From contig JAJTYH010000002.1 in assembly GCA_021463465.1 (NCBI GenBank), forward strand, positions 201,799-265,798: a stretch of DNA of 64,000 bases, read 5' to 3'. How positions within the stretch are numbered: position 1 is the stretch's first letter; every line of letters begins with the position of its first letter. The position numbers were made by a program, and so were the translations under genes. Origin of the DNA: a bacterium (GTDB lineage Bacteria; Patescibacteriota; Dojkabacteria; SC72). Below the pieces are notes generated by a model. The model had not been told where the DNA came from and made no database searches. It worked only from the letters and a program-made list of their open reading frames with translations. This document shows, piece by piece, positions 7,097 to 64,000 of this stretch.

Positions 7097-7106
7097 CAGA
7101 ACACTT

Positions 7107-7739: not shown

Positions 7740-7794
7740 ATGATCATCTCCTTGTTTGTAAGCGAATCTAACTTGATTTGTTTTTACCTATTTA

Positions 7795-8043: not shown

Positions 8044-9201
8044 ATGGTTAATAATGCTAACACACAAGAAATTAATAGATTAAATGCGTTAAGGGAGCAA
8101 ATTACCTTTCCTATCGGAATGGATTCAGGAGAAATTTTGGATCAAGTACCTCAAGCAGAACAAATTTTAGCAGAGTTAGATGCTGGATTTGTTGAACTAC
8201 CTTCGCTTGATGAAGCCTTAAAGGCAAAACTTGGCGACAATGCGGAAAACCTTTTGAAAGCAGAAGGTTTTAGAGTGTTAGATATCAGAAACAATCAGTG
8301 CACATATCTATCTACCAAGAACCTCCCAAATGGCCGCAAAGAACTAAGGTCGCACTGGAAAAAACTCCTCAAAGAACTCCCAGAGGAAGCCTCTGTTAAG
8401 TCTATTGGTGATATTCTCCTAGTAACTCAGAGCGTTAAAGATGGAGTACTGACAAACAAACTTCATGTACTTGTAGATTTAAGAGAAAATGAATCAAGCA
8501 AAAAGGATGGGATAAGTCTATCAATACTTCAAGAGAAAGAAGACGGACATGTTTGGGATGTTAATAATTTGTACGGAATAAAGAGTAAAGTTTACTTGAA
8601 AAATAACGAACTGGTTTGGTTATTTATCAATCCATTTAAGTACTTTGGACGTATCGCCACAATTGATGGGAAAAATGTAATCCTAAACCGTTTATCACTT
8701 AATCCGGGGAGTCAAAGCTTCATTCCTGACATAGTCAAACATGAAAAGGTGCATATTAAACAGAGCTCAGAAGGAGTCCTTAAAATGGATGATGAGTTAA
8801 AGTTTGTTGCTTTTTCAATCCTTTTTCAAGATTTAGCCTCATTATCCTCACTTGCTGTTTTGATTCAACAAGGCTCACCTTGGCTATTTATGGCAAGTCT
8901 CACTGCAGCTTTAGCACTGTATATTCGTTCTAGACAAAAAGGAACTCCTTTGAACAAAGGACTGAGTAAACTACTAGCTGTTGAGGCAGAAGCATACTTT
9001 TCTTCTATTGCACACGAAAGAATTCTTAGAGATAAAGGGTATGTTGCAAGTAAACCTATACTACAACCCAAAGAGTATGCTAAACAACTTTCTTTATACC
9101 AACCTCTCACTTGGCTTTTGATCCAGAAAATTCATGAGCTTTTTACTAGGCGGAAGATAACAGCTGCTCCCTTACCGGCTACAGGATATTCTTTGAGTTA
9201 A
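8044..9201 (+). CDS. Hypothetical protein with an HExxH motif and C-terminal hydrophobic helices
   Basis: The ORF track starts on TTG at 8038; the first ATG is at 8044. VKHEKVHIKQ (HExxH) is followed by two predicted TM helices. No confident family. Confidence 0.4.
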   Translation: MVNNANTQEINRLNALREQITFPIGMDSGEILDQVPQAEQILAELDAGFVELPSLDEALKAKLGDNAENLLKAEGFRVLDIRNNQCTYLSTKNLPNGRKELRSHWKKLLKELPEEASVKSIGDILLVTQSVKDGVLTNKLHVLVDLRENESSKKDGISLSILQEKEDGHVWDVNNLYGIKSKVYLKNNELVWLFINPFKYFGRIATIDGKNVILNRLSLNPGSQSFIPDIVKHEKVHIKQSSEGVLKMDDELKFVAFSILFQDLASLSSLAVLIQQGSPWLFMASLTAALALYIRSRQKGTPLNKGLSKLLAVEAEAYFSSIAHERILRDKGYVASKPILQPKEYAKQLSLYQPLTWLLIQKIHELFTRRKITAAPLPATGYSLS

Positions 9202-9266
9202 AAGTCATTGACTCCCTACTAAAGAAATGCTTAAGTATATGAGTAAATAAATTTTGTCTCTGCCCA

Positions 9267-9614
9267 ATGGATATAGCGCAAATCAACGCTTTACTCGATT
9301 CACTAGAGGATTTGTTTAATAAAGCCGATGAAACTATTGTAAAACCTGAGAATAAGGTTTTTGTATTGGCCGGAATCTCAAACCTGAGAGATAATCCAAC
9401 TTCTGAAGAATTAGAAGGTTTCTTAGATGTGATAAAAGCTTACGCAACGCTCCCAAGCGAACAGCTTAACGCTATATCTGCCCAAGAATCACATGCAACT
9501 CAGCCACAAGTACCTTCACAAACAGCTGACGACAGTTTAGCGCAGGATCAAGCCAGACTTAAAGAATTACTTGAAAAGTTAAATAAATTAAATCAAAGCG
9601 CAGTTCAGGAGTAG
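9267..9614 (+). CDS. Small acidic hypothetical protein
   Basis: 115 aa, D/E/Q-rich, coiled-coil-like C-terminus. Immediately upstream of the giant ORF. Confidence 0.4.
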   Translation: MDIAQINALLDSLEDLFNKADETIVKPENKVFVLAGISNLRDNPTSEELEGFLDVIKAYATLPSEQLNAISAQESHATQPQVPSQTADDSLAQDQARLKELLEKLNKLNQSAVQE

Positions 9615-9691
9615 GCGAGAATACTCTTGTGCAATTTAGCAGAAAAACTTATATTAGTTGGTAATAACGAGTAAATTAAAAGTATTTTGTT

Positions 9692-10153
9692 ATGTTAAAA
9701 ATGCCAGATGTGTCAGTATTATCCCAAGATATTTTCCAGCTTTTAGGTATGGAAGCATTGGATGAAGTTGAGAAAGAGAAGTTTATGAACGATTTTTTGA
9801 ATTCAGTTTCAAAACAATTTTTCATTTCAAAGATTTTACCTTTCCTCAGTAATGAAGAAAAAGATAACTTATCTGACAAATACGAGAATTTGGATCAAAC
9901 AACTCTTCCAACTTTATTTGGTGAACTTTCAGAAAAGATTCCTAATATCGCTGATCTATATGTTGAATCCTTGAGAGAAGTCAAAGCGAAGCTTGTTACA
10001 GACACATACATCAACAAATCAGATATGCTTGAAGACTTAATTGCAAAAGAGAGTGACTCAGGTAAGGCTTCAGATTTGCGTGAGCAGTATGATTTATGTC
10101 AAAAAAACCTATCTTACGCACAAAACGGAAGATTCGATTTGATAACTAATTAA
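9692..10153 (+). CDS. Small acidic hypothetical protein
   Basis: 153 aa, acidic, helical. Stop lies 18 bp before the giant ORF's ATG. Confidence 0.4.
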   Translation: MLKMPDVSVLSQDIFQLLGMEALDEVEKEKFMNDFLNSVSKQFFISKILPFLSNEEKDNLSDKYENLDQTTLPTLFGELSEKIPNIADLYVESLREVKAKLVTDTYINKSDMLEDLIAKESDSGKASDLREQYDLCQKNLSYAQNGRFDLITN

Positions 10154-10171
10154 TATTTTTTATTGGAAAAC

Positions 10172-13100
10172 ATGTTAGCAGCACCTGGACGAGGAGAACT
10201 ACCAAGCTTTGAAAATCTAAATATTTCTCCAGAGAGCGCTGAAGAGTTAGGGAGAGATTTACGTAAAACTTTAGAGGCACTTGTAACTGGTTTCACTGGT
10301 GACTCTGGAGCAGCAAAAAAACTTCTCGAGAGTATGCTTGACCCGCAAAAAGAGCAAGCAGAGGGAAAAGTTCCAGAACGAACTAATGCTACACCTCTTT
10401 TGTCTGAGCAAAAGGGTGTGAAAAAGGTAGATAATGGACTTGAAATTGAAATTACTTCACCTGCGGTCAAGGAAGCTTTCATTGGCCCAAATGGGCGATC
10501 ATTGACAGAAGATATGTTCCAAGTCATCGCAGGAAGAGAAACGCAGGTAAGTGCCGCAGGTAAACCAGGAAATCTAAACTCGGGTCTTAGTGAAGTTAAA
10601 TCTGTCACTTTAGGCGGTGCCAATGTGAAGACAGGCTTTGATAGGTTAGAGCTTTCTAAAGGTGGTGATAAAGGATCTCCAAATGGTAACGAAGTTCTTA
10701 CTTTTGTAAAATTAGATCCAGAGGGGAAACCTGACCCAAAGAAGTCTGTCTCGATAAGAATTGAGAGAACTCAAAACGATACTAGTGGCATCCCTGATTC
10801 CAAAGTAATACTTTCCTTGGGCCTCCAAGAGACAAGTAACGCTATTACAGATAGTATTGGTAATATTCCAACGCGTTTATCACAAGTTGAATATTTACTG
10901 AAATTCAAACCGGATTTATCACTACAAGAAAAGGATGATTTGTCGGCCGAAGCCGCTTTGTTACGCGAACAGACAGTAACGGGTTTAAATGCAGAATCAA
11001 GACAAGCAAACCAGGCCTTGCTTTTTAAGGATTTGGCCTCAATTATTGCAATCGCTCGAGAAAGAGGACATTCAGTAACGTCTAGAGCTTCAATGGCTGA
11101 TTCAAATGAATCTGTTAGCTCAAGACAGTTTCAGGCTTTAGAAGTTTTCAATAGAATTATTGAGACACCTGGCTCTTTGATTAATCGATCAAAAAAAGCG
11201 GAGAAAAGAAGTGGAGACGTATCTGAAGATCAGAAGCTTTCCGACCTGAAGAGTTTTATAAATAAAGTTAGAGCCGATAGTAATGGAGAAGTTCCTGACC
11301 AAACGCCCAGGCAGGAAGTTCCAACTCCGTTAGGCGGTGAGTTGCAAACTAGCAATACTAAAAAGGAAGCTCCAAAGTCTATTGATGAGCTGAAGAAAGA
11401 TTTTGAAGGTGAACTCTCAGCAATTAAGGACTTGAGAAAGCGAAAAGAAGACTTAGAAGCAGAAATAAAAGCACTTAGTTCTGCTGATGCAGGAACCCTC
11501 TCCGTTGAAGAGAAAAAGAAACTTGAGTCTCTACAGAAGGACCTAGACGAGACAAAGCGCGGGTTAGAAATCTTAAAATCGCTTGGTGACATACAACTAT
11601 TTGACAGGAAAAAAAGTCTCAGAGATAAACTCAAAAACAGATTTCAGGATGAAATTGATTCTAGTACTGTCCTTACCCCTGAACAAATATCAAAACTCTC
11701 AGTTTCAGACTTACTTAGAATTCTTACCTTAAATGCCCAATACGCTAGCAAGAAAGATTCTACACCTGAAACAGCTGAAAAGGACAAACAGAATCTAGAC
11801 AAAATCAACGCTCTTATTGGTTTAGTCAATAGCTTCTCTGAAGCAAACCCTAATGCAGTAAAAGAGAGTAAAGGAAAAGATAAAAAGAAAGCAATCGACT
11901 TACTCACTGAGTGGTTAACTGCAAGAGAAACATCCCTAAGTACTGAAATTGACAAGCTCAACACAGCAGGAGCAACACTTGAAACAACTAACAAAGAGAG
12001 GGAAGAGAAGCTTGCAGCTTTGAAGAAGGAACTCGAGAAATTAGATGTTGATTTTGCAGCTACGCAATTAAAGGCAGCAAGTAGCTTAAGATCTCTTGGC
12101 GATCAAATCCCAACTGATGAATGGATCAAGTTAAGCAGCGCGCTGCATGAAGCTTCATTTGGTGATTTGCCAGAGAACCCCGAAGACACAAAAACAAAGA
12201 CTGAAGCCGCCGCCAATGCTTCTATCGCTTCAAATTGCCTTAGACATATTGATTTAGAGCTTGAGCAACGAATTGAGCCTGAAACTTCTAAGGTTAAGAA
12301 GTTCTTTAAACGAGCAGCTGAGGTACTTACATCTGTATTCGGTGGTATAGCCGCTCGAACAGCAGTTAAAGCTATAATAACTGGAACCCTAGGTTTAGCA
12401 CTTGGCGGTCCAGCAGGCTTATTGCTTGGTGGTGTTGCAGGGGCCTTGGCTGGAGGTGCTTCGAGTGCAATATTTAGTACTTGGATGCATTACAAGGTTT
12501 TCCACAACGACAAACTGCATGCGTTATATGCAGAGAATGCGAATCCTGGCAAATATGATTTCTTCAGATCTAGAATATTTGATAAGGCTAATGAGACTTA
12601 TGGTGTTAAAGCTCGAATCCAAAACATTGCAACCGTATACAATCAATTACTTTCGGGTCAACTAAAAGCCGATCAGTTAACACCTGATTTAGCTAAGACA
12701 GTACTGTCGGTTGTCAAAGACGCCAAGATGCTTAAAAACACCACCAATTTCATTGGTGTAAATAATCTAGGACTCGATGCGAATCTTTTCAAAAATGCTG
12801 CGGGTGAAACGGTTTTACCAGAAGATGCTTTACGAGATTTTGCTTTGAAATTTGATAATTTTGTCAACAACTCTATAAATGCAGGAAAATTAAACACTGA
12901 CGAAGTTTCAAAAGCACTTAGTGAAGCTGACAGTGAATCTAAGACAATGGTTAATGCAATGATAGCTTCAGCTTCTTGGACCAAATTCTTTAAAGGTGCT
13001 CTAATCGGAGGTGCTTCAGGCTTAATCGCACAAGGAATAGGAAATGCCCTCGAAGGAAAGGGCTTCTTAGGAACAGAAACTGGTGGGGTGACAAACTCAG

Positions 13101-15400
13101 CTGTAGGTTCAGTCACAGAATCACAAATGTCTGATGCAGATGTTTTGAAATTTAATGAAGAAGCTATGAAACGATTGGCTCCATACGGACAACAACAAGT
13201 AGCTCTCTTGCATCAAAACTACAGTAATGTTCCCGAAGCAGACTTACAAAAGATGTTTACCCAATTTGATGTAAATGGTAATGGAATACTTGAAGGCACT
13301 GAAGCAAATGCTCTAGTAGATTCACTTAATCAGTCAGGCTCAACTGGAGGTGTACCTACGTTAGTTGGTGCATGGGACGCACCTTATGATGGAAATATTT
13401 CAAAAGATGTACCACCTGAGTGGGTAGATACTTGGACCAAAGCAATCTACAATGTGGGTCGAGGACATGATTTCCATGGAGCTCAGTTTAGTATGCAGGG
13501 TGCTCCTGGAGGCGACTATTACGCTCTAGGACGGGCTTTAGATTACATGTCAAAGCATGTGCCAGCAGAGAGTATGAATACTCCCGAGGCTGGAATTTCG
13601 GTCTCCCATCTTTACGGCCACTTATTACTTGGAGGCCAACCAACCGATGCTCAATTAGCTGAATTCTTGACCAGGGTTGATGCCAAATATGAAGGTACAG
13701 ATTATGATATAAGCAAGATATTTACAGGTTCAGGTGAAGCAGTAACATCTTCTACAACCAATTCATCTGCATTGATTGCAGGAATGAACCAAATCACAAC
13801 GGCGGCCCAAAATGATGTAATGACTCTTTGGTCATCAATGGCTGAGAGCCCAACTATAACTGAGACAGTAAGCAACTCAGTGGCTAATTTTGTTGTTGAT
13901 ACCACAAAAGGTATAAATGAACTTGGCACTTCAGGTGCATTGGCAGGAATGGGTGTTTCTATGTGGCTAGCAAATATGTACACACCTGAGAATAGAGAGT
14001 ATGCCAAGGTGAAAGAGGCTGGCAAAGAAGGAGATAAGTCCGGTACACCTCCAGCAAATCAACCGGGAAATAGTTCAACTTCTGCAGGCTCAACAACACA
14101 AAAGGCAAATAACACACCTGGTAGTAACTCTGCAGACCAAACAGTTGAGACAGCAAACCGAAACAGTGGTCTTACAGATATCTCAGCCGCAAGTGCAAAA
14201 CAAGGAAGTGAATTGAAACCTTTTGGTAAAATTGAGTCTGCAGGAGTAGGCCTTTCTGCTGATAGTGAGAATACTAATCCAAATGTGGTAAATATTAATG
14301 CAGCAAACGGAAGATTTGTGGCATCAACCCCAGTATGGGTTAAGTCGCAAACAGGAAATGTCTCACAATTTGCCTACAGGCATCCAAGATTGGCTGAACT
14401 CTACAAAGAAGTTCTTTATATCGGCAATTTCATCAAACAATACGCCAAAACAACTGTTGGAATGAATAATGATCCTTTTGAGGCCCAAGTACTTGCAGAT
14501 ATTACAAAGTCAGTAGCTGCAAATGATAAGTATGCAGTAAGGAGACACGATGGAGGGGCCGTAAGCGTTGCGAGTTCACAGGTATATAACCTTGATCCCT
14601 ACAGAGCAAGAAAAAATGAACTCACGGCTGGACAAAACTTAAGAGAATTAAATGAAAGTGTTCGCCAGCCATTGGCCAAATTCGTCAAGAAAATGCTTGA
14701 GGTTGAATTTGGTGCAGGTGGATTAGGTCAGCAACACTTAGGTGATATTGATAGGGGAGTTCTTGATCTTTACATGAAGGATGGCGGCGAGAAATATATT
14801 AATAATGAGCAAGTACACGCATTCTTAGCTCTGCTTATGGTGTTGAATGATCCTGAAAATATGGAACCTAAATCCAAGTTCCTAAATCAAAAAGGTACAC
14901 AAGAATTCAATGGAATTGTAAATGTAATGATCTCTAGAGAGAGCGCATGGATGTCAATGTTATCACCAAAACTAAACGGCCAAAATTACCTAGGCTCAGC
15001 ATTCTTAGTGTCTGACGGAATTATTAGATCTGCACTTGAAATGAGCGGATATAATGTAAAGCCAGACCAAAGAGAAGCCCGACAGTACTTTACAAACGTG
15101 GATCAAATTGCGAGATCAGTAGCGTTGGTTAAAGGAGGCTCACCGTATAGTAATGCTCTGCAGTTAGTAAATCTTGCTAATCAAAACGGGGTAGAGTACT
15201 TCGCTCTAATGCGCGAAGCCACAGCAAAGGCACGAGCAGAAAAGAAAGGAAAGAAGAAAAAGCAACAGCAACAGCTAAATGATGCCGTAAGTGCAGTCCC
15301 AACAGTTACACCACAACCTGGCGAGGCCTTGCAAGATGAACCAGCACGTGAAGCAGTAGTAGTTGGAACGAACGAGCCAGCAGGTACAGATGAGATCTAA
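10172..15400 (+). CDS. Giant (1742-aa) multidomain protein with a coiled-coil region, a glycine-zipper membrane segment and a canonical EF-hand
   Basis: The track ORF begins on TTG at 10163; the first ATG is at 10172. Long heptad/KE-rich stretch (~aa 380-640). GxxxG-rich hydrophobic segment TGTLGLALGGPAGLLLGGVAGALAGGASSAIF. EF-hand loop DVNGNGILEGTE flanked by helices. Lys/Gln-rich C-terminal tail. Confidence 0.7.
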   Translation: MLAAPGRGELPSFENLNISPESAEELGRDLRKTLEALVTGFTGDSGAAKKLLESMLDPQKEQAEGKVPERTNATPLLSEQKGVKKVDNGLEIEITSPAVKEAFIGPNGRSLTEDMFQVIAGRETQVSAAGKPGNLNSGLSEVKSVTLGGANVKTGFDRLELSKGGDKGSPNGNEVLTFVKLDPEGKPDPKKSVSIRIERTQNDTSGIPDSKVILSLGLQETSNAITDSIGNIPTRLSQVEYLLKFKPDLSLQEKDDLSAEAALLREQTVTGLNAESRQANQALLFKDLASIIAIARERGHSVTSRASMADSNESVSSRQFQALEVFNRIIETPGSLINRSKKAEKRSGDVSEDQKLSDLKSFINKVRADSNGEVPDQTPRQEVPTPLGGELQTSNTKKEAPKSIDELKKDFEGELSAIKDLRKRKEDLEAEIKALSSADAGTLSVEEKKKLESLQKDLDETKRGLEILKSLGDIQLFDRKKSLRDKLKNRFQDEIDSSTVLTPEQISKLSVSDLLRILTLNAQYASKKDSTPETAEKDKQNLDKINALIGLVNSFSEANPNAVKESKGKDKKKAIDLLTEWLTARETSLSTEIDKLNTAGATLETTNKEREEKLAALKKELEKLDVDFAATQLKAASSLRSLGDQIPTDEWIKLSSALHEASFGDLPENPEDTKTKTEAAANASIASNCLRHIDLELEQRIEPETSKVKKFFKRAAEVLTSVFGGIAARTAVKAIITGTLGLALGGPAGLLLGGVAGALAGGASSAIFSTWMHYKVFHNDKLHALYAENANPGKYDFFRSRIFDKANETYGVKARIQNIATVYNQLLSGQLKADQLTPDLAKTVLSVVKDAKMLKNTTNFIGVNNLGLDANLFKNAAGETVLPEDALRDFALKFDNFVNNSINAGKLNTDEVSKALSEADSESKTMVNAMIASASWTKFFKGALIGGASGLIAQGIGNALEGKGFLGTETGGVTNSAVGSVTESQMSDADVLKFNEEAMKRLAPYGQQQVALLHQNYSNVPEADLQKMFTQFDVNGNGILEGTEANALVDSLNQSGSTGGVPTLVGAWDAPYDGNISKDVPPEWVDTWTKAIYNVGRGHDFHGAQFSMQGAPGGDYYALGRALDYMSKHVPAESMNTPEAGISVSHLYGHLLLGGQPTDAQLAEFLTRVDAKYEGTDYDISKIFTGSGEAVTSSTTNSSALIAGMNQITTAAQNDVMTLWSSMAESPTITETVSNSVANFVVDTTKGINELGTSGALAGMGVSMWLANMYTPENREYAKVKEAGKEGDKSGTPPANQPGNSSTSAGSTTQKANNTPGSNSADQTVETANRNSGLTDISAASAKQGSELKPFGKIESAGVGLSADSENTNPNVVNINAANGRFVASTPVWVKSQTGNVSQFAYRHPRLAELYKEVLYIGNFIKQYAKTTVGMNNDPFEAQVLADITKSVAANDKYAVRRHDGGAVSVASSQVYNLDPYRARKNELTAGQNLRELNESVRQPLAKFVKKMLEVEFGAGGLGQQHLGDIDRGVLDLYMKDGGEKYINNEQVHAFLALLMVLNDPENMEPKSKFLNQKGTQEFNGIVNVMISRESAWMSMLSPKLNGQNYLGSAFLVSDGIIRSALEMSGYNVKPDQREARQYFTNVDQIARSVALVKGGSPYSNALQLVNLANQNGVEYFALMREATAKARAEKKGKKKKQQQQLNDAVSAVPTVTPQPGEALQDEPAREAVVVGTNEPAGTDEI

Positions 15401-15431
15401 CTTTGGCTTTTTAAAAGTTTTAGGATCGAAA

Positions 15432-15457
15432 GGGGGCTAGCACATAGCTCCCTTTTT
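15432..15457 (+). terminator. Rho-independent terminator after the giant ORF
   Basis: gggggcta-gcaca-tagctccc (8-bp stem with one G-U pair) followed by TTTTT. Confidence 0.7.
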
Positions 15458-15461
15458 GATA

Positions 15462-15491
15462 TTGACAAAGTCTCCAGACCTATAGTATAAT
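15462..15491 (+). promoter_or_regulatory. Consensus sigma70-type promoter (TTGACA-18 bp-TATAAT)
   Basis: ttgaca at 15462-15467 and tataat at 15486-15491, with an 18-bp spacer. Drives a ~170-nt leader ahead of the GC-rich ORF at 15666. Confidence 0.6.
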
Positions 15492-15565
15492 ACACTCGTA
15501 ATATCTTAGAATATTACAATCTGCTCTTTTAAAATGCAGTACGATAATAAGATTTCTGTGAGAGC

Positions 15566-15618
15566 CAACTAACCAATATTGTTATTAATCACCTATTGAT
15601 ACCACTATTGGTTAGTTG
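15566..15618 (+). promoter_or_regulatory. 13-bp perfect inverted repeat in the 5' leader (operator or RNA stem)
   Basis: caactaaccaata ...27 nt... tattggttagttg, between the promoter and the SD (aaaggagg, 15651-15658). Confidence 0.45.
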
Positions 15619-15665
15619 TAATATCCAAAATCTTCAAGTGCCAAACACCACAAAGGAGGTCGTCA

Positions 15666-16084
15666 TGGCAGGTTTCTTTAGTTCGGTTTGGAATACGCTC
15701 ACGGGACGCGGTAAGGAGTCGCAATCAATGCAATTCATGCGTGAAACCGGAGCGGGTCAAGGGGACATTCGGGTGGCACGAGCAGCTCTCATTGACGCGG
15801 TCAACGCGGCGTGCATTGAGCTTGATATCGTTCTCAAACCCGGTGGAACCCAGGTAATCGAGAAGGCAATCCTTGAAGCTGTCGACCCAGGGTCGATCCA
15901 AAATCTTCAGCTTCTCCAGAGGATGCGCTCCATGGGAGTCTTAAACACTGGCATGATGATGCAATCGCCAACTCCAGCGATGGACCCAACAATGATTGCG
16001 CAAATCGTCAACCAGGTGATGGACGCTCGTGAAGCCGCCAAGCTCACCCAAACAGACCGGCCCCAAAAATCAGACGAGGTGTAA
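15666..16084 (+). CDS. Small hypothetical protein in a GC-rich (~55%) self-contained cassette
   Basis: Strong SD AAAGGAGG 7 nt upstream of the ATG at 15666; the track ORF start at 15596 lies inside the leader. Own promoter and terminator. No recognisable domain. Confidence 0.6.
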
Positions 16085-16112
16085 CAACCGAGTCAGCGTA
16101 CTGCATTCCCGT

Positions 16113-16141
16113 GGGGAAGCTCTCTTTTAGAAAGCTTCCCC
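16113..16141 (+). terminator. Rho-independent terminator
   Basis: ggggaagct-ctcttttagaa-agcttcccc, a perfect 9-bp stem, followed by a gttttgtgttt T-rich run. Confidence 0.65.
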
Positions 16142-16198
16142 CGGGTGTACGTTTTGTGTTTACATATATCAATATGTTTAGTATTTTTATATGTAAGT

Positions 16199-17425
16199 AT
16201 GAAATCACCTACTCACGAGAGTACAAACAAAAACCCTCGCCATATTGAGAAAATAGGGTTAAAAGCTGAAGCAACAGAAAGTTCACCAAACATCGAGACG
16301 GGACTAAGACTTTTAGGATCTGGTTTTGAAGGCGATACTTATGAATACAGGGCGAGAGATGGAAGTATTAAAGCCATAAAGGTTTTCAGACCTCGTGGGA
16401 AGGTATGGGATGACAACTATCATCAAGAGTTTGATGCTGCAGACCCAAACGACCCGAGAGAATTATCCAAAACAATATTTCGTGCAGCACATACAGCGAG
16501 ATGGGCAGATCGAATACAACATCCAGCACATCTGATTGAGGAGATTAACAAGCTCGATGACGAACTAATGGCGACAGGATCGAGTGCGTATAATATTCGA
16601 ACTCTACAAGAATCCTTTGCTAGGGTAGGTGATTTGAACACTAATGGCTTTAGAAATTATTTAACCCAAAGAGCATTAGCCCTGGGACAAAGGATTTTTG
16701 TTCCTGAAATAAATATTGACCCAAATTTCAAAGGTGGATTAGGCTCAGCGATTAATCGTTTAGTCGAATGGACAAGTACTAATTATCCTCAATTACAGCT
16801 GCCTAAAAGAATATTTCCCAGATTCATACAATTTGGAAAGTTTCCTGAAGACTATCCAAATCTTAAAGTCGCTGGAAGAGAGTATTTAGTTATGGAGAAA
16901 GTGCACTTGATTCTTGGTGACTATATAGAAAAGACTCAATCCAAAATACTTTCAATGGGCAGTATTTTATCTGATAGCCCTGAAATAGCTCAAGTTCAAC
17001 CCCTCCCAATCTCGATTCAACAGATTGCCGGAACTAGAACGAATCTAGAAATTTTAGCTTCTCTAGGATTAACCTTTGGTGATTTAAAATTGGGTAACAT
17101 AGCCTTTGACGCAGACAACACTCCAATTCTCATTGACCCCACTGCGGTGCTCAAAACTGGAAGTATCCAAGATATTGCTACTATGGACTACCTCCCTCCA
17201 CATGTTCAAGCACAAGTAAGAATGATGCAACCAATCAAGGGAGATCCTCAAAACGATATTTATGCTTTAAATCGAATACTTTCTATTATACAGCAGGAAT
17301 GGATGCAGGCTGTAATGCAAGGACTAAGAAAGAATACGCGTAATATAATGCATGATGAGAGGGTTGGGACAGAAACAGCCTCAACAATGCTTCAAAACTC
17401 AAGAAGAAATCAAAATACATTATAA
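16199..17425 (+). CDS. Protein-kinase-like (PKL) superfamily protein, atypical
   Basis: Track start is GTG at 16145; the first ATG is at 16199. LGSGFEGDTYEY (GxGxxG loop) with AIK lysine 14 aa later. FGDLKLGNIAF resembles the HRDLKxxN/HGDxxxGN catalytic loop; IDP may be the DFG-equivalent. The spacing between the Lys and the catalytic loop is unusually long. Confidence 0.45.
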   Translation: MKSPTHESTNKNPRHIEKIGLKAEATESSPNIETGLRLLGSGFEGDTYEYRARDGSIKAIKVFRPRGKVWDDNYHQEFDAADPNDPRELSKTIFRAAHTARWADRIQHPAHLIEEINKLDDELMATGSSAYNIRTLQESFARVGDLNTNGFRNYLTQRALALGQRIFVPEINIDPNFKGGLGSAINRLVEWTSTNYPQLQLPKRIFPRFIQFGKFPEDYPNLKVAGREYLVMEKVHLILGDYIEKTQSKILSMGSILSDSPEIAQVQPLPISIQQIAGTRTNLEILASLGLTFGDLKLGNIAFDADNTPILIDPTAVLKTGSIQDIATMDYLPPHVQAQVRMMQPIKGDPQNDIYALNRILSIIQQEWMQAVMQGLRKNTRNIMHDERVGTETASTMLQNSRRNQNTL

Positions 17426-34038: not shown

Positions 34039-34122
34039 TGGTCGGAGAGGGAGTTGAACCCTCACACTATTGCTAGTACGGGATTTTGAGTCCCGCGTGT
34101 CTGCCAATTCCACCATCCGACC
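34039..34122 (-). tRNA. tRNA-Leu (anticodon CAA)
   Basis: Minus-strand sequence GGTCGGATGGTGGAATTGGCAGACACGCGGGACTCAAAATCCCGT...GGGTTCAACTCCCTCTCCGACCA. 7-bp acceptor, anticodon loop CTCAAAA, long variable arm, discriminator A. Confidence 0.85.
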
Positions 34123-35490: not shown

Positions 35491-36186
35491 CTAGTTTAAA
35501 AATACAATTTCCATTGCACTTTCATCTTCCTCAATCCTCGCAGTAACCTTAAGAGTTTTCTCTTCTCTTGGGTTGGAATAACCGAAATGATGCATGAATT
35601 CTTCCTTGCTCTTTAAACCTTCGACTCCTTTAAGTTCATCAGATTTGAAGCCGTAAGGTACTAAAACCCCTGGTTCAATCTCCGAAATGATTTCACCAAG
35701 TAAATCATAGTCTAAGAAAATCTCTCCATTTCCAACAGGGGCAATTAATACATCAACATTTCCTAAGTCTTTGAATACCTTCAAATCAGATCCTTTAGAA
35801 TCCAATCCTACATAAACAATACGGGAGTATCCTGAATCAAAAATATAGTAAGGAGTTCCAATGGGTCGTTGTATCAAAAGTTGACTAATTTCAAACTCAC
35901 CAGCTCCGTTCACCTCAAAGATTTCAGATTTTTTCTTAGGAACCAGTTTTTCAAACCCTTTGAGCAAATTAGCCTTCCCTCCAAGTTTCTTTTGTGAGAA
36001 AACAGCCAAATCGACCTCAGTTTTAGGGAATTTTGTACCGAAATCTACTGAAGCAAGTGGGTCAGTAGCTACAGTTACATCGTCAGTAGAAATTTCAAAA
36101 GAGATGGCGTTAATTCTTCTTACTTTCATTTCAGTTTCAGGAGTACAAAATAATGTTAGTAATGAGTATACCAAAGAGTCACTCAA
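35491..36186 (-). CDS. Hypothetical protein (possibly a degenerate MBL-fold); start uncertain
   Basis: No HxHxDH motif. An alternative ATG at 36129 would remove the overlap with the sortase gene. Confidence 0.35.
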   Translation of the reverse strand: MSDSLVYSLLTLFCTPETEMKVRRINAISFEISTDDVTVATDPLASVDFGTKFPKTEVDLAVFSQKKLGGKANLLKGFEKLVPKKKSEIFEVNGAGEFEISQLLIQRPIGTPYYIFDSGYSRIVYVGLDSKGSDLKVFKDLGNVDVLIAPVGNGEIFLDYDLLGEIISEIEPGVLVPYGFKSDELKGVEGLKSKEEFMHHFGYSNPREEKTLKVTARIEEDESAMEIVFLN

Positions 36187-36655
36187 TACTCACTAGTTTA
36201 GCCACTACAACTAGCCGCTTAATTGGATTAAATATCGGAGTACAGGTAATTAAGGTCAATAAACTTTCCTGACTCCCATGTGTTACCCATAAATCTTCCG
36301 GTGTAACTACAAGTATGCTTTCTACTACATATCGCCTTCTTCCACTTTCTAAAGTGAGGTACACACTATCCCCTTTCATAACATGCTCAAGTTTAGCAAA
36401 AGCCGAATCCAATGGATTGTTATGCGTAAAACTGTGACCGTAGACCACCAGATTATTTCCTTTTCGAGAAACAGGATCCAATAGAACTCGATTGCCTTTA
36501 CTTAATATTGACATCGAATATCCTTCAACTACATCAGCAGTTATCCCTAAAGAAGGAATCTCCAACACATGCGAGGCTAGTCTAGGCAAGGGAAATTCAA
36601 AAATAGCTAGACTTAGTAACGAGATGGCGCATACGAAAAGTTTAGAGCTAAACAC
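36179..36655 (-). CDS. Sortase-family transpeptidase
   Basis: N-terminal signal/anchor. VVYGH (catalytic His) and LTLITCTP (TLxTC catalytic Cys). ~158 aa. Confidence 0.7.
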   Translation of the reverse strand: MFSSKLFVCAISLLSLAIFEFPLPRLASHVLEIPSLGITADVVEGYSMSILSKGNRVLLDPVSRKGNNLVVYGHSFTHNNPLDSAFAKLEHVMKGDSVYLTLESGRRRYVVESILVVTPEDLWVTHGSQESLLTLITCTPIFNPIKRLVVVAKLVSIE

Positions 36656-58491: not shown

Positions 58492-58578
58492 CGGAGAGAC
58501 AGGGATTCGAACCCTGGATGGAGTTTCCCCCATAACGGTTTTCAAGACCGTCCCATTCAGCCTCTCTGGCATCTCTCC
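58492..58578 (-). tRNA. tRNA-Ser (anticodon UGA)
   Basis: Minus-strand GGAGAGATGCCAGAGAGGCTGAATGGGACGGTCTTGAAAACCGTTATGGGGGAAACTCCATCCAGGGTTCGAATCCCTGTCTCTCCG. Long variable arm, discriminator G. Near-identical in layout to E. coli tRNA-Ser. Confidence 0.85.
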
Positions 58579-58615: not shown

Positions 58616-59407
58616 CTACAAAGCGATATCTGAAATATCCGGAGCGGCTCCCCCCCACCTTTCCGCTAATTCTTTTATCGCCCCAGCTTTCCATTCCCTA
58701 CGATTAAATAATTTCCTTCCTTGTGCCCTTAGGGCTAATTCTACCGAAGAAGCAAACTTAACATCTCTACCCAGATCTTTAGCACCAACGATACACCTTG
58801 TTCCTGTATCAGCGATGAACGCATGCTGCATTACTCTATTTTGAGAATTTGCGCCATCACCTTCTGCAAAAGTAATTTCTGTATTTGGAAACAGTATTGA
58901 ATCTGGTACTTTATTTGTAATTGGAAGTACTATACCTCCGTTATCTCCATTTGGATGGATTGATTGAATCAAATCTTTTAATGGTTTGACGTTGTTATGT
59001 CCATAGGGAAAAGTAAATACAGGGACTCCATTAAAAATAAAGCATCTAACAACTTCAGTATACATTAACAAACTTGGCTCTTTAACACCTCTTTTAGCTA
59101 AATCCTCAAGCAATTTAAAAACAGAAACATCCTTTTCTCTTTGAGAAACCGAGAACGGACTTACTGATAATCCCTCTACACGATTAATTTCTTCAAGTAA
59201 TGTTCGCTTATCATTAATTCGTATACCCATACTGGACTCAGGGGTGATTAATTCAACACTTACGGGAGCAACTAACCCTGTATCAACTGTAAATGTTAAC
59301 TCTGTCTGGAAGTGCTGCATTCCAGAATCTTTAGCAAACTTTGAGTCAATTCTCCTTAACTGACCATCTCCTGTACTTAAACGTTCAATAAAAGTTGAAT
59401 CAATCAT
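58616..59407 (-). CDS. Hypothetical protein
   Basis: 263 aa, no confident family. Confidence 0.35.
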   Translation of the reverse strand: MIDSTFIERLSTGDGQLRRIDSKFAKDSGMQHFQTELTFTVDTGLVAPVSVELITPESSMGIRINDKRTLLEEINRVEGLSVSPFSVSQREKDVSVFKLLEDLAKRGVKEPSLLMYTEVVRCFIFNGVPVFTFPYGHNNVKPLKDLIQSIHPNGDNGGIVLPITNKVPDSILFPNTEITFAEGDGANSQNRVMQHAFIADTGTRCIVGAKDLGRDVKFASSVELALRAQGRKLFNRREWKAGAIKELAERWGGAAPDISDIAL

Positions 59408-59433: not shown

Positions 59434-60429
59434 CTATTCATTAGTAAAAATCTGCCTAATAACACCCTCCAAACTCATCTCTGCAATGTCCAAATCTTCC
59501 ACTGGAAACGCCTTTAAGAGCTTAGCTGATGCATTTGCAACATCATTTCTATCTACATGTATGACACCACCTGTATCATTAAGCGATACCACTTGCCCTA
59601 TCTTCTCCAAATCTGCCCTATCAATCTTTTTACTTACAACAAAACTTATCGTTTTATACTTCACATGTTCCCTAATCAAATCAGATATTTTTCCGTCATA
59701 CATGATATGACCTCCGTCAACAATAATCACTCTCTTACATAATTCCTTAACGTCATCCATATTGTGGCTAGTCAAAATGACAGTAGTACCGAACTTCTGA
59801 TTATATTCTTTGAAGAAGATTCTAAGTCTTCTTTGCATTACTACATCAAGTCCAATAGTAGGCTCATCTAAAAACACTACACTCGGTGCATGTAATAGCG
59901 CAGAAACCAACTCACATTTCATTCTTTGACCCAGAGAAAGTTTTCTAACAGGGATATTAACTACTCTCCCAAGAGAGAGAAGATCTATAAGTTCATCAAT
60001 CTTGTTTTTAAAATCCTGTTCATCAACTTCATAAATCTCTTTATTCAACAAAAAAGAATCATAAGCAGGTAAATCCCACCAGAGTTGATTCTTCTGCCCC
60101 ATTACTAGTGAAATTTTCTTCAAGAAGCTGCGCTCACGATGCCATGGCGTATGCCCTAAAACACCCACTTCACCAGATGTAGGATAAAGGAGACCTGAAA
60201 GACACTTCAAAGTGGTCGTCTTACCTGCCCCATTTGGACCGATAAAGCCAACAAACTCACCTTTTTGTATTTCAAAAGAGATATCATTTACAGCTTGAAT
60301 TTCTGAGTAATCTCGGGAAAAAAGACTTTTGACTGAGCCGAGTAACCCTGGCTCCTTTTTATATACTTTAAAGTACTTCCTCAACCTTTTTACTGAGACC
60401 ACTGGCGACATATGAATACATTTTAGCAT
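59434..60429 (-). CDS. ABC transporter ATP-binding protein (ABC-2 exporter type)
   Basis: GPNGAGKTTT Walker A, LSLGQRMK signature, VVFLDEPTIGLD Walker B, and an H-loop. Confidence 0.85.
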   Translation of the reverse strand: MLKCIHMSPVVSVKRLRKYFKVYKKEPGLLGSVKSLFSRDYSEIQAVNDISFEIQKGEFVGFIGPNGAGKTTTLKCLSGLLYPTSGEVGVLGHTPWHRERSFLKKISLVMGQKNQLWWDLPAYDSFLLNKEIYEVDEQDFKNKIDELIDLLSLGRVVNIPVRKLSLGQRMKCELVSALLHAPSVVFLDEPTIGLDVVMQRRLRIFFKEYNQKFGTTVILTSHNMDDVKELCKRVIIVDGGHIMYDGKISDLIREHVKYKTISFVVSKKIDRADLEKIGQVVSLNDTGGVIHVDRNDVANASAKLLKAFPVEDLDIAEMSLEGVIRQIFTNE

Positions 60430-60474
60430 ATCGCTGATTGACTGTACCCTTTTAAAACAATAATATTAAGACGT

Positions 60475-61689
60475 ATGAATAAACTGCTCTGTTTCTTTCT
60501 AACCTTAGTGATTTTCTCTCTGAACTTTTTGCCAGTATTTGCCGAGGATCTTAACTCTACAAACTTCAAAATTACTGGTGCGACTATGAATTCCGGAGGC
60601 GAAACTTCTCAAGCAGGTTCAGGCAACTTCAAGCTTTTAAATACAATGGGCGATTTCTCTGGCGACCCTAGAGTGCTTAGCACAAACTATCGCGCAGGAA
60701 TTGGGGAAGTAGAAATCTTTACTGCGAATGTCCCACAAATCTCATGTTTTGAAACTACAACTAGCGGATCATCATCTTGTACCACTGGTCCTGCCTATTT
60801 AAATACTAATGGTATGGTCAGAGTGTGCGGACCAACAGGTTGTTACGATCGGGCAAGGTTTGAAATTGATTCTCAAAGTAATCCGAGTGATACCCTTTAT
60901 GCAATCCAACTCTCAACTGATAATTTTGCTTCGGATATAAGATACATAGATGGGGTTACTCATAAACCCATCACTTCGTCCAACGTAACTATTGATGATT
61001 ACTTAACGAAATCTGCTTGGGAAACTGATGCAACAAATGTGTTAGGTCTTGATGCAAGTACAACCTACAAATTGCGAGCTAAAGCGTTACACGGAGACTT
61101 TACCGAAAGTGATCCAGGTCCCAGTGCAACTGCAACTACAGCATCCGCCACGATGAGCTTTGATATTGATATTGCTGATACTACAGGCGTCTCTACAGAA
61201 TCAAGTGCGCCGTATACAGTGAATTTCAATAACAGTGACAGATTGGTACAAACAGGTCCAGCTCAAACCTCTGATGATTTGATATGGCTTGATGGTCAAA
61301 CTAATGGTTCCGGAGGGTTATCAATACTTTTCAAAGGTCAAAACGGAGGACTTAATTCCACAACAGCTTCGTATACTATTACTTCAGCGAGTGCCGATTT
61401 AGACGGAGTTGTAGAGGGTTTTGGGATTCAGAGTTACTATAAGTCGCAGCTATACGAATTAGGAAGCGGTAACGGTAGTTTGGCTACTCTTTCTGTCATT
61501 TCACCCTATAACGGAGCTGGAAATAACGTTGGAATTATCGATGCAGTTTTTAGCAAAGTGTACGAGAGCAATGGCCCAACTCATACAGGTCGGGTCGGAC
61601 TACTTCTCAAAGCTCGAGCCTCCGGCTCAGCAACCCCCGCCACAGACTACACAGAAACAGTGACAATAGTAATAGTCCCAAAGTACTAG
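60475..61689 (+). CDS. Secreted protein with SCPU/Csu-pilin-like C-terminal motif
   Basis: Signal peptide (LPVFA/ED). Ser/Thr/Gly-rich beta-type composition. C-terminal ATDYTETVTIVIVPKY resembles the G-x-Y-x-D-T-V-T-V terminal strand of spore-coat-protein-U/CsuA-B domains. Confidence 0.45.
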   Translation: MNKLLCFFLTLVIFSLNFLPVFAEDLNSTNFKITGATMNSGGETSQAGSGNFKLLNTMGDFSGDPRVLSTNYRAGIGEVEIFTANVPQISCFETTTSGSSSCTTGPAYLNTNGMVRVCGPTGCYDRARFEIDSQSNPSDTLYAIQLSTDNFASDIRYIDGVTHKPITSSNVTIDDYLTKSAWETDATNVLGLDASTTYKLRAKALHGDFTESDPGPSATATTASATMSFDIDIADTTGVSTESSAPYTVNFNNSDRLVQTGPAQTSDDLIWLDGQTNGSGGLSILFKGQNGGLNSTTASYTITSASADLDGVVEGFGIQSYYKSQLYELGSGNGSLATLSVISPYNGAGNNVGIIDAVFSKVYESNGPTHTGRVGLLLKARASGSATPATDYTETVTIVIVPKY

Positions 61690-61738
61690 TGAAATTGACA
61701 CACTAGCGCAAAATATATATCCTAGTATGATTGGATAA

Positions 61739-62905
61739 TTGACTGCTTACTTTATGAGTTTACAAAAAATCAAACTGCCTAGTCAGTTCGCAAAAATTAT
61801 AATTGTCCTTGTATTTTCTGTGGGTATATTCTTGTTATCAACTCCACTCTTTTTCTCAAAAGCAAACGCGCTAACTGCTGCCTACTTCTATCTCAGCCGA
61901 ATGGCAACAAACATTAACGGCTCATCAGCTACAGTCACCTACACAATTGCAGTAGCGCCAACACAATCAATGTCTTCCAGCGGGACTGTTGCGATTATCT
62001 TTCCTGATGCGGACGATGGTAACTGGTGTAGAACAGCAGGAAGTTTAACTGTAACTGCAGTTTCATCTGCTCTTCCCGATTTGGCAAGCACTAACTGGGC
62101 TATAGACGCAAGCCTTCCTAACAACGGCTCTGCTCTTACGGCTAGCTGCGTACAAGGTTCAGGTTCAAGCTCTTTTGACACAATAACGGTATCCAATGTA
62201 GGTGCACTTACAGGTGGCACAACTTACGGCTTCAGAATTTCTAATGGAAGTTCTGCAGGTGTTGTGGGGACTGACGACACCTCTGGCACTCATACTACAA
62301 CGCTTCGAGTCCAAAGTGGAGCTACAATTGACGCCAGCACTTTTGATTTGTACCTTGTATCTACCGATTCTGTAACAGTCTCTGCTACAGTACAAGCTGT
62401 ACCAACTGTTAACTGCTCAATTAGTTCCAACTCAGTCAGTTTGGGAACTCTTTATCCCGGGGGTGCTTACTCAACAGCCACAAACACAATCACCACATCA
62501 ACTTCATCTAGTACCATTGGGTACTACTGGTCATCTTTTGGTACAGGCGATGGGAGTACAGATGCAGGTTTGTATAAATCATCTGCCACTACATATTTGA
62601 TAGCATCTACTGGTAGCTCAACTATAAACCTGTCAGGTCTGGGTACGGAAGGTTTCGGAATTACAGTCTCAGATCCTGACGCAGGTGGGGCAGCAGTCGT
62701 CCCAGCGGATTTCAGTGATGGCAGTGCCGGAACCTTTGGTGCCTTAGATCGTGATAGTACGAACGCACAATTAATTCTCTATCAAAACGGCGCACAGACA
62801 AGCCCTGACAACTCAACTGTAACTTATGGAGGTAAGGCAGGAGCATCTGCTGAAGCAGGTAGCTATTCAGAAACAGTCTACTTTGTTTGCGGTGCATACT
62901 ACTAA
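61739..62905 (+). CDS. Secreted Ser/Thr-rich protein with SCPU-like N- and C-terminal signature
   Basis: Signal peptide (FSKANA/LT). ATVQAVPTVNCSISSNSVSLGTL resembles the SCPU domain start (conserved Cys). C-terminal AGSYSETVYFVCGAYY resembles the SCPU terminal strand. Confidence 0.45.
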   Translation: MTAYFMSLQKIKLPSQFAKIIIVLVFSVGIFLLSTPLFFSKANALTAAYFYLSRMATNINGSSATVTYTIAVAPTQSMSSSGTVAIIFPDADDGNWCRTAGSLTVTAVSSALPDLASTNWAIDASLPNNGSALTASCVQGSGSSSFDTITVSNVGALTGGTTYGFRISNGSSAGVVGTDDTSGTHTTTLRVQSGATIDASTFDLYLVSTDSVTVSATVQAVPTVNCSISSNSVSLGTLYPGGAYSTATNTITTSTSSSTIGYYWSSFGTGDGSTDAGLYKSSATTYLIASTGSSTINLSGLGTEGFGITVSDPDAGGAAVVPADFSDGSAGTFGALDRDSTNAQLILYQNGAQTSPDNSTVTYGGKAGASAEAGSYSETVYFVCGAYY

Positions 62906-62930
62906 ATCGCGGATACTTTAAAAGGTTGAA

Positions 62931-63962
62931 ATGAAAAATCTCACGCAAAAGTTATCCCTCACACTAATTATTCTAGTTTCCCTATTTGCACTATTTGCAC
63001 TATTCCCCCACCCATCCTATGCACAACAATTAGGTAATAACAGTTTGTCTCTGGGTTTTGCTCCCACTTCACAATTCCTAACTCTCTCAGCAGGCTCTAG
63101 ACACACAGGAGAGGTTACAGTATGGAATCTTTCACCTGTACCCAGAGTCTATAATGTTATCATTCGAGGTTTTAAACAGATTGAAAACTATCCAGGCACA
63201 GCTCGAATTCATTCCGAAGCAGAAGAGGAAAGAGATGTATTTAGTGCTGCAAAATGGGTCCAGATTCCTTACACTCAAGTTAACCTTATGCCCAACCAGT
63301 ACACTAAAATCCCATATGAAATAACTGTACCCGCTAATTCTGCCTCCGGTGAATTTCATGCTATGATTTTCCTAGTATCCCAAGCCCCTCATGTAGATTT
63401 GGACATTAATTCTACCTCAACATCCAACTTAGGTTCTGGTCCTGTTATTTTTGTAAAAGTGGGTGACAAGATAGTAGAGCAAGCAGAAATTGAATACTTC
63501 AGAAGCGAAAAAAGCTTTTACGAACTACCTCCGATTAGCTTTCAAACCCGATACATAAATAAGGGGAACACTCACATCACACCTGCGGGAGACATAATCA
63601 TTGAGAATTTTTTAGGACAAGAAATAGACAAAGTAACCTTCAATAGTAACCGTCAAAGTTTGTTGCGAGGAAATGCCGGCAATTATACAGACGAGTGGCA
63701 CCATCAAGGGGTCTTTTTACGAAACGGTAAGCTCGCAATCGGGCCTCTAAAAGCCCGTCTCATAACTACTTATAGATCTGAAAACCCAGGTCACGCACCA
63801 CTTAGTGCTGTTACTACCTTCTGGGTACTACCTTGGAAACATATACTAGCAATTGTATTGATTGTAGGTATAATATACAGACTTATTTCATCCTTGCGTA
63901 AGAGAAATGAACAAAAGATCCGTTCTTACGACCCTATTGCTAGTTATCCTAAGTATAACTAG
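62931..63962 (+). CDS. Signal-peptide protein with a C-terminal TM anchor and basic tail (cell-surface anchoring/assembly component candidate)
   Basis: SP (FPHPSYA/QQ), a ~270-aa beta-rich ectodomain, TM ILAIVLIVGIIYRLI, and RKRNEQK tail. Architecture like the DUF916/DUF3324 anchors of Gram-positive surface-protein clusters. Confidence 0.4.
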   Translation: MKNLTQKLSLTLIILVSLFALFALFPHPSYAQQLGNNSLSLGFAPTSQFLTLSAGSRHTGEVTVWNLSPVPRVYNVIIRGFKQIENYPGTARIHSEAEEERDVFSAAKWVQIPYTQVNLMPNQYTKIPYEITVPANSASGEFHAMIFLVSQAPHVDLDINSTSTSNLGSGPVIFVKVGDKIVEQAEIEYFRSEKSFYELPPISFQTRYINKGNTHITPAGDIIIENFLGQEIDKVTFNSNRQSLLRGNAGNYTDEWHHQGVFLRNGKLAIGPLKARLITTYRSENPGHAPLSAVTTFWVLPWKHILAIVLIVGIIYRLISSLRKRNEQKIRSYDPIASYPKYN

Positions 63963-64000
63963 CTACCTACCAACCCCTGCAAACGCTACCAATATTACCC
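63907..64000 (+). CDS. Start of a further signal-peptide protein (3'-truncated by window end)
   Basis: ATG at 63907 gives MNKRSVLTTLLLVILSITSYLPTPANATNIT (classic signal peptide), overlapping the previous gene's end. Confidence 0.4.
   Translation, partial: MNKRSVLTTLLLVILSITSYLPTPANATNIT

Follow-up and report, generated by a model that had tools for sequence, protein, structure and literature searches.

What kind of surface assembly is encoded by the four consecutive genes for secreted proteins, P1 to P4, that close a 64,000-nucleotide (nt) stretch of Dojkabacteria DNA (contig JAJTYH010000002.1; the whole stretch is called the window here)? An earlier note on this DNA had seen in two of the proteins a resemblance to the SCPU/CsuA-B pilins, and in a third an architecture reminiscent of the anchors of WxL surface complexes. 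The answer that we favour, with a probability of roughly 0.6, is that the P1-P2-P3-P4 operon encodes a cell-surface complex of the WxL-cluster type that is held together non-covalently. P3 and P4 are homologous to the WxLIP anchors of such clusters, and P1 and P2, which have a C-terminal domain in common, would be the partners that they hold. Close homologues are annotated Candidatus Dojkabacteria or candidate division WS6, in the Candidate Phyla Radiation (CPR; Patescibacteria).

Organisation of the operon

The run of signal-peptide genes that the earlier note had placed at the end of the window was confirmed, all on the + strand. P1 (404 amino acids (aa); 60475–61689) was taken from the open reading frame (ORF) listing, and P2 (383 aa; 61754–62905) is given from the start of the database protein, the mechanical ORF beginning at a TTG at 61739. 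P3 (343 aa; 62931–63962), a WxLIP-like membrane anchor by its AlphaFold2 (AF2) model, Foldseek and hhalign, is followed by P4, a second WxLIP-like anchor, whose 5′ end (63907–64000) has 56 nt in common with the end of P3, in a different frame, and runs off the window. The signal-peptide gene suspected at this edge is thus real, and an identical contig supplies it complete (309 aa; L001:12154–13083). P1, P2, P3 and P4 alike have a signal peptide at the N-terminus.

Inspection downstream, which the note had recommended, completed P4 and showed a convergent RNase HII gene behind it. Because the genes for RNase HII and cysteinyl-tRNA synthetase (CysRS), which follow P4 in the identical contig, converge on the end of the operon, the operon comprises exactly four genes. 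A promoter and terminator scan of the operon gave counts no higher than the shuffled expectation. The sortase that had been listed among the signs of a monoderm context is present at 36179–36655 of the window (PF04203, E = 1.3e-23).

P3 and P4 resemble WxLIP anchors

The AF2 model of P3 (pLDDT 82.7) has two immunoglobulin (Ig)-like beta domains and a transmembrane (TM) helix at residues 302–331. This C-terminal hydrophobic helix is followed by a basic tail, RKRNEQKIR, and a low-confidence loop (residues 154–165) lies at the end of the first Ig domain. P4 has the same layout in its sequence: signal peptide, ectodomain, TM stretch and basic tail. WxLIPs range in size from 320 to 380 aa (PMC10599100); their architecture is found in P3 (343 aa, from the model) and in P4 (309 aa, from the sequence layout).

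When the P3 model was searched with Foldseek against 350,542 PDB chains, the best three fold matches were all EfmWxLIP1, namely 9i25_C (E = 2.2e-12), 9i1y_A and 9i1y_B (to 7e-11), with TMt values of 0.51–0.54. These entries hold the Enterococcus faecium WxLIP bound to a long WxL protein (9i25) and free (9i1y). EfmWxLIP1 was also the sole match when the P3 family profile was run against all PDB sequences (E = 0.0065). The suggestion that the third protein is related to the anchors of WxL complexes has therefore held up in both kinds of search. After WxLIP, the best-superposed matches were the chaperone–usher (CU) chaperones CfaA, CsuC, Caf1M and DraB (E 7e-9 to 9e-7, TMt ~0.5), so that the TM-score of P3 against CU chaperones (~0.5) is about equal to that against the E. 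faecium WxLIP. Other Ig-type matches (CEP192 SPD-2 and ciliary central-apparatus proteins; MSP/ASH/PapD-like) had comparable E-values and superposed poorly. The word 'chaperone' is absent from the 2023 WxLIP paper.

Profile comparison with hhalign connected the proteins stepwise to Firmicute WxLIPs, for which annotated Enterococcus, Lactococcus, Lactiplantibacillus, Levilactobacillus and Listeria replicons served as the reference. P3 and P4 are paralogues (P = 1.2e-9). Dojkabacteria P3 aligned with the P3-like proteins of remote CPR loci at P = 1e-53, and P4 did so at P = 1e-17; the remote CPR proteins in turn aligned with the Firmicute WxLIP ectodomains at P = 2e-12 (probability 97.7%, 233 columns, covering both domains). 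Direct comparison with Firmicute WxLIPs gave P = 6.5e-5 for P3 and P = 7e-5 for P4, and the reversed controls for this set of comparisons all had P of at least 0.27. The Pfam model PF06030 (WxLIP_PGBD, formerly DUF916) matched 22 of 26 P3 homologues weakly, and it matched 65 of 103 sampled top family representatives at E ≤ 0.01 (best 8.5e-12). An exhaustive P3 profile search of cluster representatives at 50% identity returned 9,128 at E ≤ 1e-3.

P1 and P2 share a C-terminal domain

P1 consists of a signal peptide, a conserved N-terminal S-x-N-[FY]-K segment, a four-cysteine region (C91, C102, C118 and C123, invariant in the family alignment), a fibronectin type III (FN3)-like domain and a C-terminal partner domain of ~178 aa (residues 227–404; 61153–61686, +; delimited by hhalign). 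FN3 is matched by 15 of 33 P1 homologues in Pfam and the P1 family also matches fibronectin in the PDB; the P1 of the window itself has no Pfam or NCBIfam match. P2 is modelled as two beta-sandwich domains (AF2, pLDDT 83.8), with its partner domain of ~177 aa, likewise from hhalign, at residues 207–383 (62372–62902, +). It contains VPTVNCSISSNSVSLGTL, and its partner domain begins VPTVNCSISS. Four cysteines of P2 are invariant (C92, C132, C221 and C379), C221 and C379 lying within the partner domain. Members of the P2 family are 54–76% identical across 37 aligned homologues, and up to 81% by BLASTP.

The C-terminus of P1 is ATDYTETVTIVIVPKY and that of P2 is AGSYSETVYFVCGAYY; the partner domains end DYTETVTIVIVPKY and GSYSETVYFVCGAYY, respectively. 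These termini had been called near-identical. Similarity is borne out, near-identity is not, since 7 of 16 tail residues are the same. Whole-protein BLASTP of P1 against P2 found no significant similarity, and what they share is visible to profile methods only: a beta-rich C-terminal domain of ~175 aa ending Y-x-E-T-V-x-[IF]-V...Y, aligned by hhalign at P = 1.2e-4 (probability 55%, 134 columns; reversed controls P of at least 0.08). Its common landmarks are GGLYS in one protein and AGLYKS in the other, I-S...DL...EGFG, and A[RK]A...Y-x-E-T-[IV]-x-F-V. Conservation of the tail, which the earlier note had named as a check, is evident in each family, with invariant or near-invariant Y392 and E394 in P1 and Y371, E373, C379, G380 and Y382 in P2; among the 43 window ORFs of at least 200 aa, the tail motif is restricted to P1 and P2. 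Both domains also aligned with the wider family of CPR partner domains, P1 at P = 2.5e-9 (probability 96%) and P2 at P = 1.7e-10 (probability 97%). We judge from these profiles that P1 and P2 carry a homologous C-terminal domain.

In some Dojkabacteria P1 occurs in a long form, of 605–625 aa (P0239, P0255, P0260) or 616–647 aa (L028, L044, L050, L058), and Laminin_G_3 (PF13385) is present in P0239, P0255 and P0260. Given this, the outward part of P1 may be modular.

Anchor and partner genes are paired across CPR lineages

When the P3 alignment was searched against a collection that represents each GTDB species by one genome, 256 relatives were confirmed. The 80 best-matching loci were kept, and almost all of these 80 are labelled Patescibacteria. 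In every one of the 55 Dojkabacteria loci that contain all four genes, the order is P1-P2-P3-P4 on a single strand. The median gaps in Dojkabacteria loci are 86 nt (P1-P2), 10 nt (P2-P3) and −4 nt (P3-P4), and the RNase HII and CysRS genes usually lie downstream. Many Dojkabacteria-like loci (four genes with RNase HII and CysRS) bear the title 'uncultured Candidatus Saccharibacteria', and some CPR-like loci are titled Gammaproteobacteria or Pseudomonadales; these labels of third-party assemblies look unreliable.

Seventeen remote loci are labelled Saccharibacteria, Parcubacteria, Falkowbacteria, CPR3 and others, some of these labels again looking unreliable. They have one to three tandem WxLIP-like genes flanked by secreted proteins with a similar terminal strand, e.g. 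AGTYSTTLTYICTPTF and AGDYENTLTYICTPTF. WxLIP-like genes are paired with motif-bearing secreted proteins in 15 of the 17; the other two, where the motif is missing, are contigs of 2.3 kb and 3.8 kb. The C-terminal motif occurs in 33/107 non-anchor genes of at least 200 aa in the remote loci; 27 of these 33 are on the same strand as an anchor gene and at most 2.5 kb from it. The pairing has been kept across CPR lineages, and we regard this as strong contextual evidence that anchor and partner proteins work together.

Two kinds of remote locus show more extended gene sets. In L075, L077, L080, L081 and L088 (labelled Falkowbacteria, Parcubacteria and, doubtfully, Gammaproteobacteria), genes of four kinds come after a tandem of three WxLIP-like genes, encoding ~280-aa proteins with an FGE-sulfatase domain (PF03781, 2e-15 in L077), a ~130-aa TM protein, a ~600-aa protein with a terminal dockerin type I repeat (PF00404, 2e-7 in L077) and a WxLIP-like protein of 560 aa with a LytR_C fusion (PF13399, 6e-14 in L077). 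The domain matches come from L077 (e.g. 12292–16465), and the other four loci agree with it in lengths and C-terminal sequences; the set looks like a larger conserved surface module. In the Saccharibacteria loci L079, L082 and L087 (~4600–10000), a related cluster has one WxLIP-like gene and three partners. It includes a ~250-aa protein (249 aa) that starts AETLQS[TP]NY[KR], as P1 does, two partners of ~380–435 aa ending AGTYSTTLTYICTPTF, and a ~320-aa TM protein with Ig-like domains. Next in the cluster is a protein of >1000 aa in L079 and L082 (with a weak CBM_4_9 match in L079) and one of 1363 aa in L087.

Placing the partner domain and the anchors

The partner domain was compared with both families that had been brought up for it. 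No Pfam or NCBIfam model matched the C-domains of P1 and P2, their 71 aligned homologues (38 + 33) or the family consensus sequences. SCPU (PF05229) in particular had no match in P2, its 38 homologues or the consensus, and among 29 remote CPR partners it gave a single non-significant hit (E = 0.068). Neither CsuA/B nor another Csu pilin was found in the PDB sequence search or among the best 50 fold matches of P2. With no significant PF05229 match and no Csu pilin by sequence or fold, we rejected the earlier assignment of P1 and P2 to SCPU/CsuA-B; the 'Csu-like' idea survives as a mechanistic analogy, in which strand complementation is plausible, and not as family membership. PF10989 (DUF2808) was matched by 4 of 29 remote partner proteins, with a best E of 1.3e-5.

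The WxL comparison rested on 11 genuine WxL domains from annotated plasmids. All 11 match PF13731 (up to 1e-57), and their profile retrieves the solved WxL chain 9i25_A. A WxL domain is defined by two conserved Trp-x-Leu motifs, an Asp at W1-8 and an Arg at W1-6 (PMC9772566). In position, P1 and P2 resemble WxL proteins: the domain is at the extreme C-terminus of a Sec-secreted protein, the gene lies beside a WxLIP-like gene, and each cluster has at least two such proteins. When the threshold was lenient, the alignment of the CPR partner family passed three WxL landmarks in order, pairing FG after the first strand in both, TNA..GY.V with D.RG..GW.L, and AG.Y..TLTYI with A..Y.TTLTW.L. This is suggestive of a very remote WxL homology of the partner domain.

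Several results nevertheless weigh against a WxL-type complex. PF13731 matched neither P1 and P2, nor the 38 + 33 homologues, the consensus sequences or the 29 remote CPR partners. The C-domains of P1 and P2 have neither the two Trp-x-Leu motifs nor the Asp/Arg pair; the first motif position is occupied by G-L-S-I in P1 (G-F-A-I in the family consensus) and by G-Y-Y-W-S-S in P2, the second by T-I-V-I and Y-F-V-C, respectively. Run in local, lenient and global modes against the verified WxL domains, hhalign gave P = 0.13–0.17 for the P1 domain and 0.15–0.25 for the P2 domain, values like those of the controls. The wider CPR partner family reached only P = 0.007–0.016 (controls 0.43–0.7). The WxL chain 9i25_A was not among the best 50 fold matches of the whole-P2 model; these were generic two-domain Ig matches at a TM-score of ~0.2 (integrins, MSCRAMMs, CU tip adhesins), uninformative on the C-domain. 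We regard the partner domain as an uncatalogued family, neither SCPU nor demonstrably WxL. On the side of the anchors, the P3 of the window has no match to PF06030, or to any Pfam model, at E ≤ 1, and P4 has none to PF06030 at E ≤ 10. The consensus of the P3 family reaches 22.2 bits, short of the PF06030 gathering score of 27.3 bits. PF11797 (HBD/DUF3324), the second WxLIP domain, was never among the matches listed (25 of 33 families in the scan of 103 representatives). The profile searches that the earlier note had proposed thus came back empty for P1 to P4, with SCPU, WxL, DUF916 and DUF3324 all lacking a match in Pfam/NCBIfam at E ≤ 1. The motif NQIDKxxxYFDLK is also missing from P3, which has APTSQFLTLSAG where Firmicute WxLIPs have ENQIDKxxTYFDLK. 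Because Pfam matches above threshold, a listed PF11797 match and this motif are all absent, we assign P3 and P4 to the WxLIP superfamily as divergent members, not textbook ones. Finally, P2 is more conserved than adhesins usually are, which agrees better with a structural role.

Proposed assembly and alternative explanations

A WxL-cluster-type complex takes as its starting point the gene content, the homology of P3 and P4 to WxLIPs, the domain common to P1 and P2, and the strict linkage of the genes. It would add to these a physical interaction of P1/P2 with P3/P4, strand complementation, and a ligand, either a host cell or a polysaccharide. In this model, P1 to P4 would be exported through their Sec signal peptides, and P3 and P4 would be held in the cytoplasmic membrane by the C-terminal TM helix with their two PapD-like Ig domains outside. 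P1 and P2, which have no anchor of their own, would be captured through the shared C-terminal beta-sandwich of ~175 aa, a loop or strand of P3/P4 completing the sandwich as in the E. faecium WxLIP–WxL complex. The N-terminal modules (the Cys-rich region and FN3 of P1, the beta-sandwich of P2) would face outward as a binding or structural surface. That both anchors and both partners are strictly conserved suggests that they form specific pairs.

Firmicute WxL clusters have been implicated in adhesion to host matrix and to plant polysaccharides. The neighbours in some CPR loci include proteins with dockerin, carbohydrate-binding module (CBM) and FGE-sulfatase domains, as well as a WxLIP-like protein fused to LytR_C. 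A WxL cluster comprises a minimum of one WxLIP together with two WxL proteins, and in AlphaFold models a WxLIP hairpin that is disordered alone inserts as the strand completing the WxL sandwich (PMC10599100). Loop 154–165 of P3 sits roughly where these published models have the unstructured hairpin. The PDB holds a complex of WxLIP with a long WxL protein (9i25), and PMC9772566 cites reports of binding among DufA, SwpA and LwpA.

The fold of P3 opens a different route, in which P3 and P4 are membrane-tethered PapD/CsuC-like chaperones and P1 and P2, as pilin-like subunits, polymerise by donor-strand exchange into an usher-less surface fibre, the S-T-N-[FY]-K-I segment at the N-terminus of P1 serving as donor strand. 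CU chaperones (CfaA, CsuC, Caf1M, DraB) are the strongest well-superposed matches of P3 after WxLIP, and the whole-P2 model weakly matches the tip adhesins PapG, CfaE, FimH and CupB6 (E 1e-4 to 2e-3), although at TM-scores of only ~0.2. The C-terminal strand of P1 and P2 resembles CU pilin F strands in that a Gly lies ~15 residues before its end, hydrophobic residues alternate, and the last or penultimate residue is Tyr. The N-terminal S-x-N-Y-K is kept between Dojkabacteria P1 and the 249-aa Saccharibacteria proteins. No SCPU or fimbrial Pfam match accompanies these likenesses, however, and an usher or other polymerisation factor is not present: the four-gene operon bounded by housekeeping genes holds no CU usher. 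The earlier note was right about that absence and about the monoderm type of the organism, a CPR bacterium; its remark that no chaperone is evident needs the qualification that P3 has a chaperone-like fold, though anchored by a TM helix. Given also that the homologous Firmicute system forms a stable WxLIP–WxL complex and no fibre (PMC10599100), we consider such a fibre unlikely.

We think it similarly improbable that P2, and perhaps P1, is an abundant envelope protein forming a surface lattice or S-layer-like coat with P3 and P4 as its anchors. P2 is unusually conserved for a surface protein and has four invariant Cys, and the operon occupies a fixed chromosomal position by housekeeping genes (55/55 loci), core-like and unlike an accessory island; together, conservation and core-genome position fit a structural coat at least as well as an adhesin. 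CPR cells, according to Luef et al. in 2015, reportedly show a surface layer of unknown composition in cryo-electron microscopy. Against a coat, no S-layer domain (SLH or similar) was detected, and in Firmicutes the homologous clusters form adhesion complexes instead of lattices. In a broader proposal, to which we give a slim chance, the WxLIP-like proteins would be membrane-tethered counterparts of CU chaperones and the partner domain an incomplete pilin-like Ig, so that a monoderm would build a fibre or the CPR surface layer from P1 and P2 by an usher-less donor-strand system. If that were true, the WxL complexes of Gram-positive cells and the archaic CU pili of diderms would be evolutionarily connected through this system, which would also provide a main attachment structure of episymbiotic ultrasmall bacteria.

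Neighbouring genes

Upstream of P1, an ABC ATPase gene (59434–60429, −, from the ORF listing) is oriented divergently. This adjacency, pointed out in the earlier note, is correct; the role in the system implied there is not supported. A dedicated export or assembly system formed by the ATPase and the secreted proteins could draw on the divergent adjacency in the window and in 15 related loci. However, among the 46 loci with enough flank the ATPase adjoins the operon in only 15, and assorted unrelated genes occupy the position in the other 31. The ATPase is of the generic DrrA/ABC-2 type (NCBIfam), no permease gene is its neighbour (a gene for a 263-aa protein comes next), and P1 to P4 all have ordinary Sec signal peptides. 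We rejected the ATPase as a component on synteny and regard such a system as very improbable indeed.

The 263-aa protein (58616–59407, −), between the ATPase and a cupin gene, has no Pfam or NCBIfam match at E ≤ 1 and no long hydrophobic stretch by eye; among the 80 related loci it was present only in the identical contig L001. Rfam places tRNA genes at 58492–58578 (−) and 34039–34122 (−). The former directly adjoins the GTG that was listed as start of the cupin ORF (58492), a start codon that is probably wrong; the database call for the cupin is 119 aa, against 126 aa. A 1745-aa ORF at 10163–15400 (+) has no Pfam match at E ≤ 0.01.

Discussion

The WxL (Csc) clusters of Lactobacillales and Bacillales combine a small WxL protein, a large WxL protein and a WxLIP (DUF916-DUF3324-TM), often with an LPXTG protein. 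The Dojkabacteria operon is like them in having co-directional genes for Sec-secreted proteins, homologous anchors that are built alike, from a signal peptide, two Ig-like domains, a TM helix and a basic tail, and two partner proteins that share an extreme C-terminal domain. Its make-up thus parallels the cluster as defined in PMC10599100. The order of motifs would be kept too, with FG, with G-[YF]-x-[VI] for G-W-x-L, and with Y-x-x-T-[LIV]-T-[YF]-[IV] for Y-x-T-T-L-T-W-x-L. It differs in that the P1/P2 partner domain has neither Trp-x-Leu nor Asp/Arg, any WxL homology reaching P ~0.01 at best; in that there are two WxLIP paralogues, not one, and no LPXTG protein; and in that the second domain of P3 and P4 is not recognised by PF11797 and NQIDKxxxYFDLK is lacking. 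It belongs to a CPR bacterium, whereas Firmicutes account for >91% of the WxL proteins known (PMC9772566), and the genes occupy a fixed core locus instead of a variable multi-copy island.

Some likeness to Csu and other CU systems is also apparent. The two-Ig fold of P3 is clearly similar to that of CU chaperones, CsuC included, P1 and P2 are subunit-like and end in a beta strand of the G...Y-x-x-T-V-x-V type, and beta-strand complementation is, by analogy, probable. Unlike the Csu system (CsuA/B pilin, CsuC chaperone, CsuD usher), the Dojkabacteria system has no usher and no outer membrane; unlike CU chaperones, P3 is anchored in the membrane by its TM helix; and unlike CU pilins, P1 and P2 are matched by no SCPU or fimbrial profile. 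The resemblance between the folds of WxLIPs and CU chaperones may point to a common principle of strand complementation in monoderm and diderm surface systems.

Gut bacteria of the Lactobacillales and Bacillales have been seen as the particular home of WxL clusters (PMC9772566, PMC10599100), and in the searchable literature no report links WxL, DUF916 or WxLIP with Patescibacteria. A transposon sequencing (Tn-seq) paper on Saccharibacteria mentions adhesins, none of which, in the passages searched, is identifiable with a system of the P1–P4 type. What is new here is the partner domain and the CPR host lineage; the anchor, WxLIP, is known, and here divergent. The WxLIP component of these clusters has a very large, divergent radiation beyond Lactobacillales and Bacillales, and in CPR the WxLIP-like genes are consistently accompanied by an uncatalogued C-terminal domain in the place of WxL.

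A life attached to other cells is assumed for CPR bacteria, whose surface proteins, type IV pili excepted, are poorly characterised. Saccharibacteria are genetically tractable, which would make the system testable in that lineage, and the proteins of the operon offer a handle for antibodies, proteomics and genetics. A surface operon conserved in synteny is a concrete candidate for an attachment or envelope structure of CPR bacteria.

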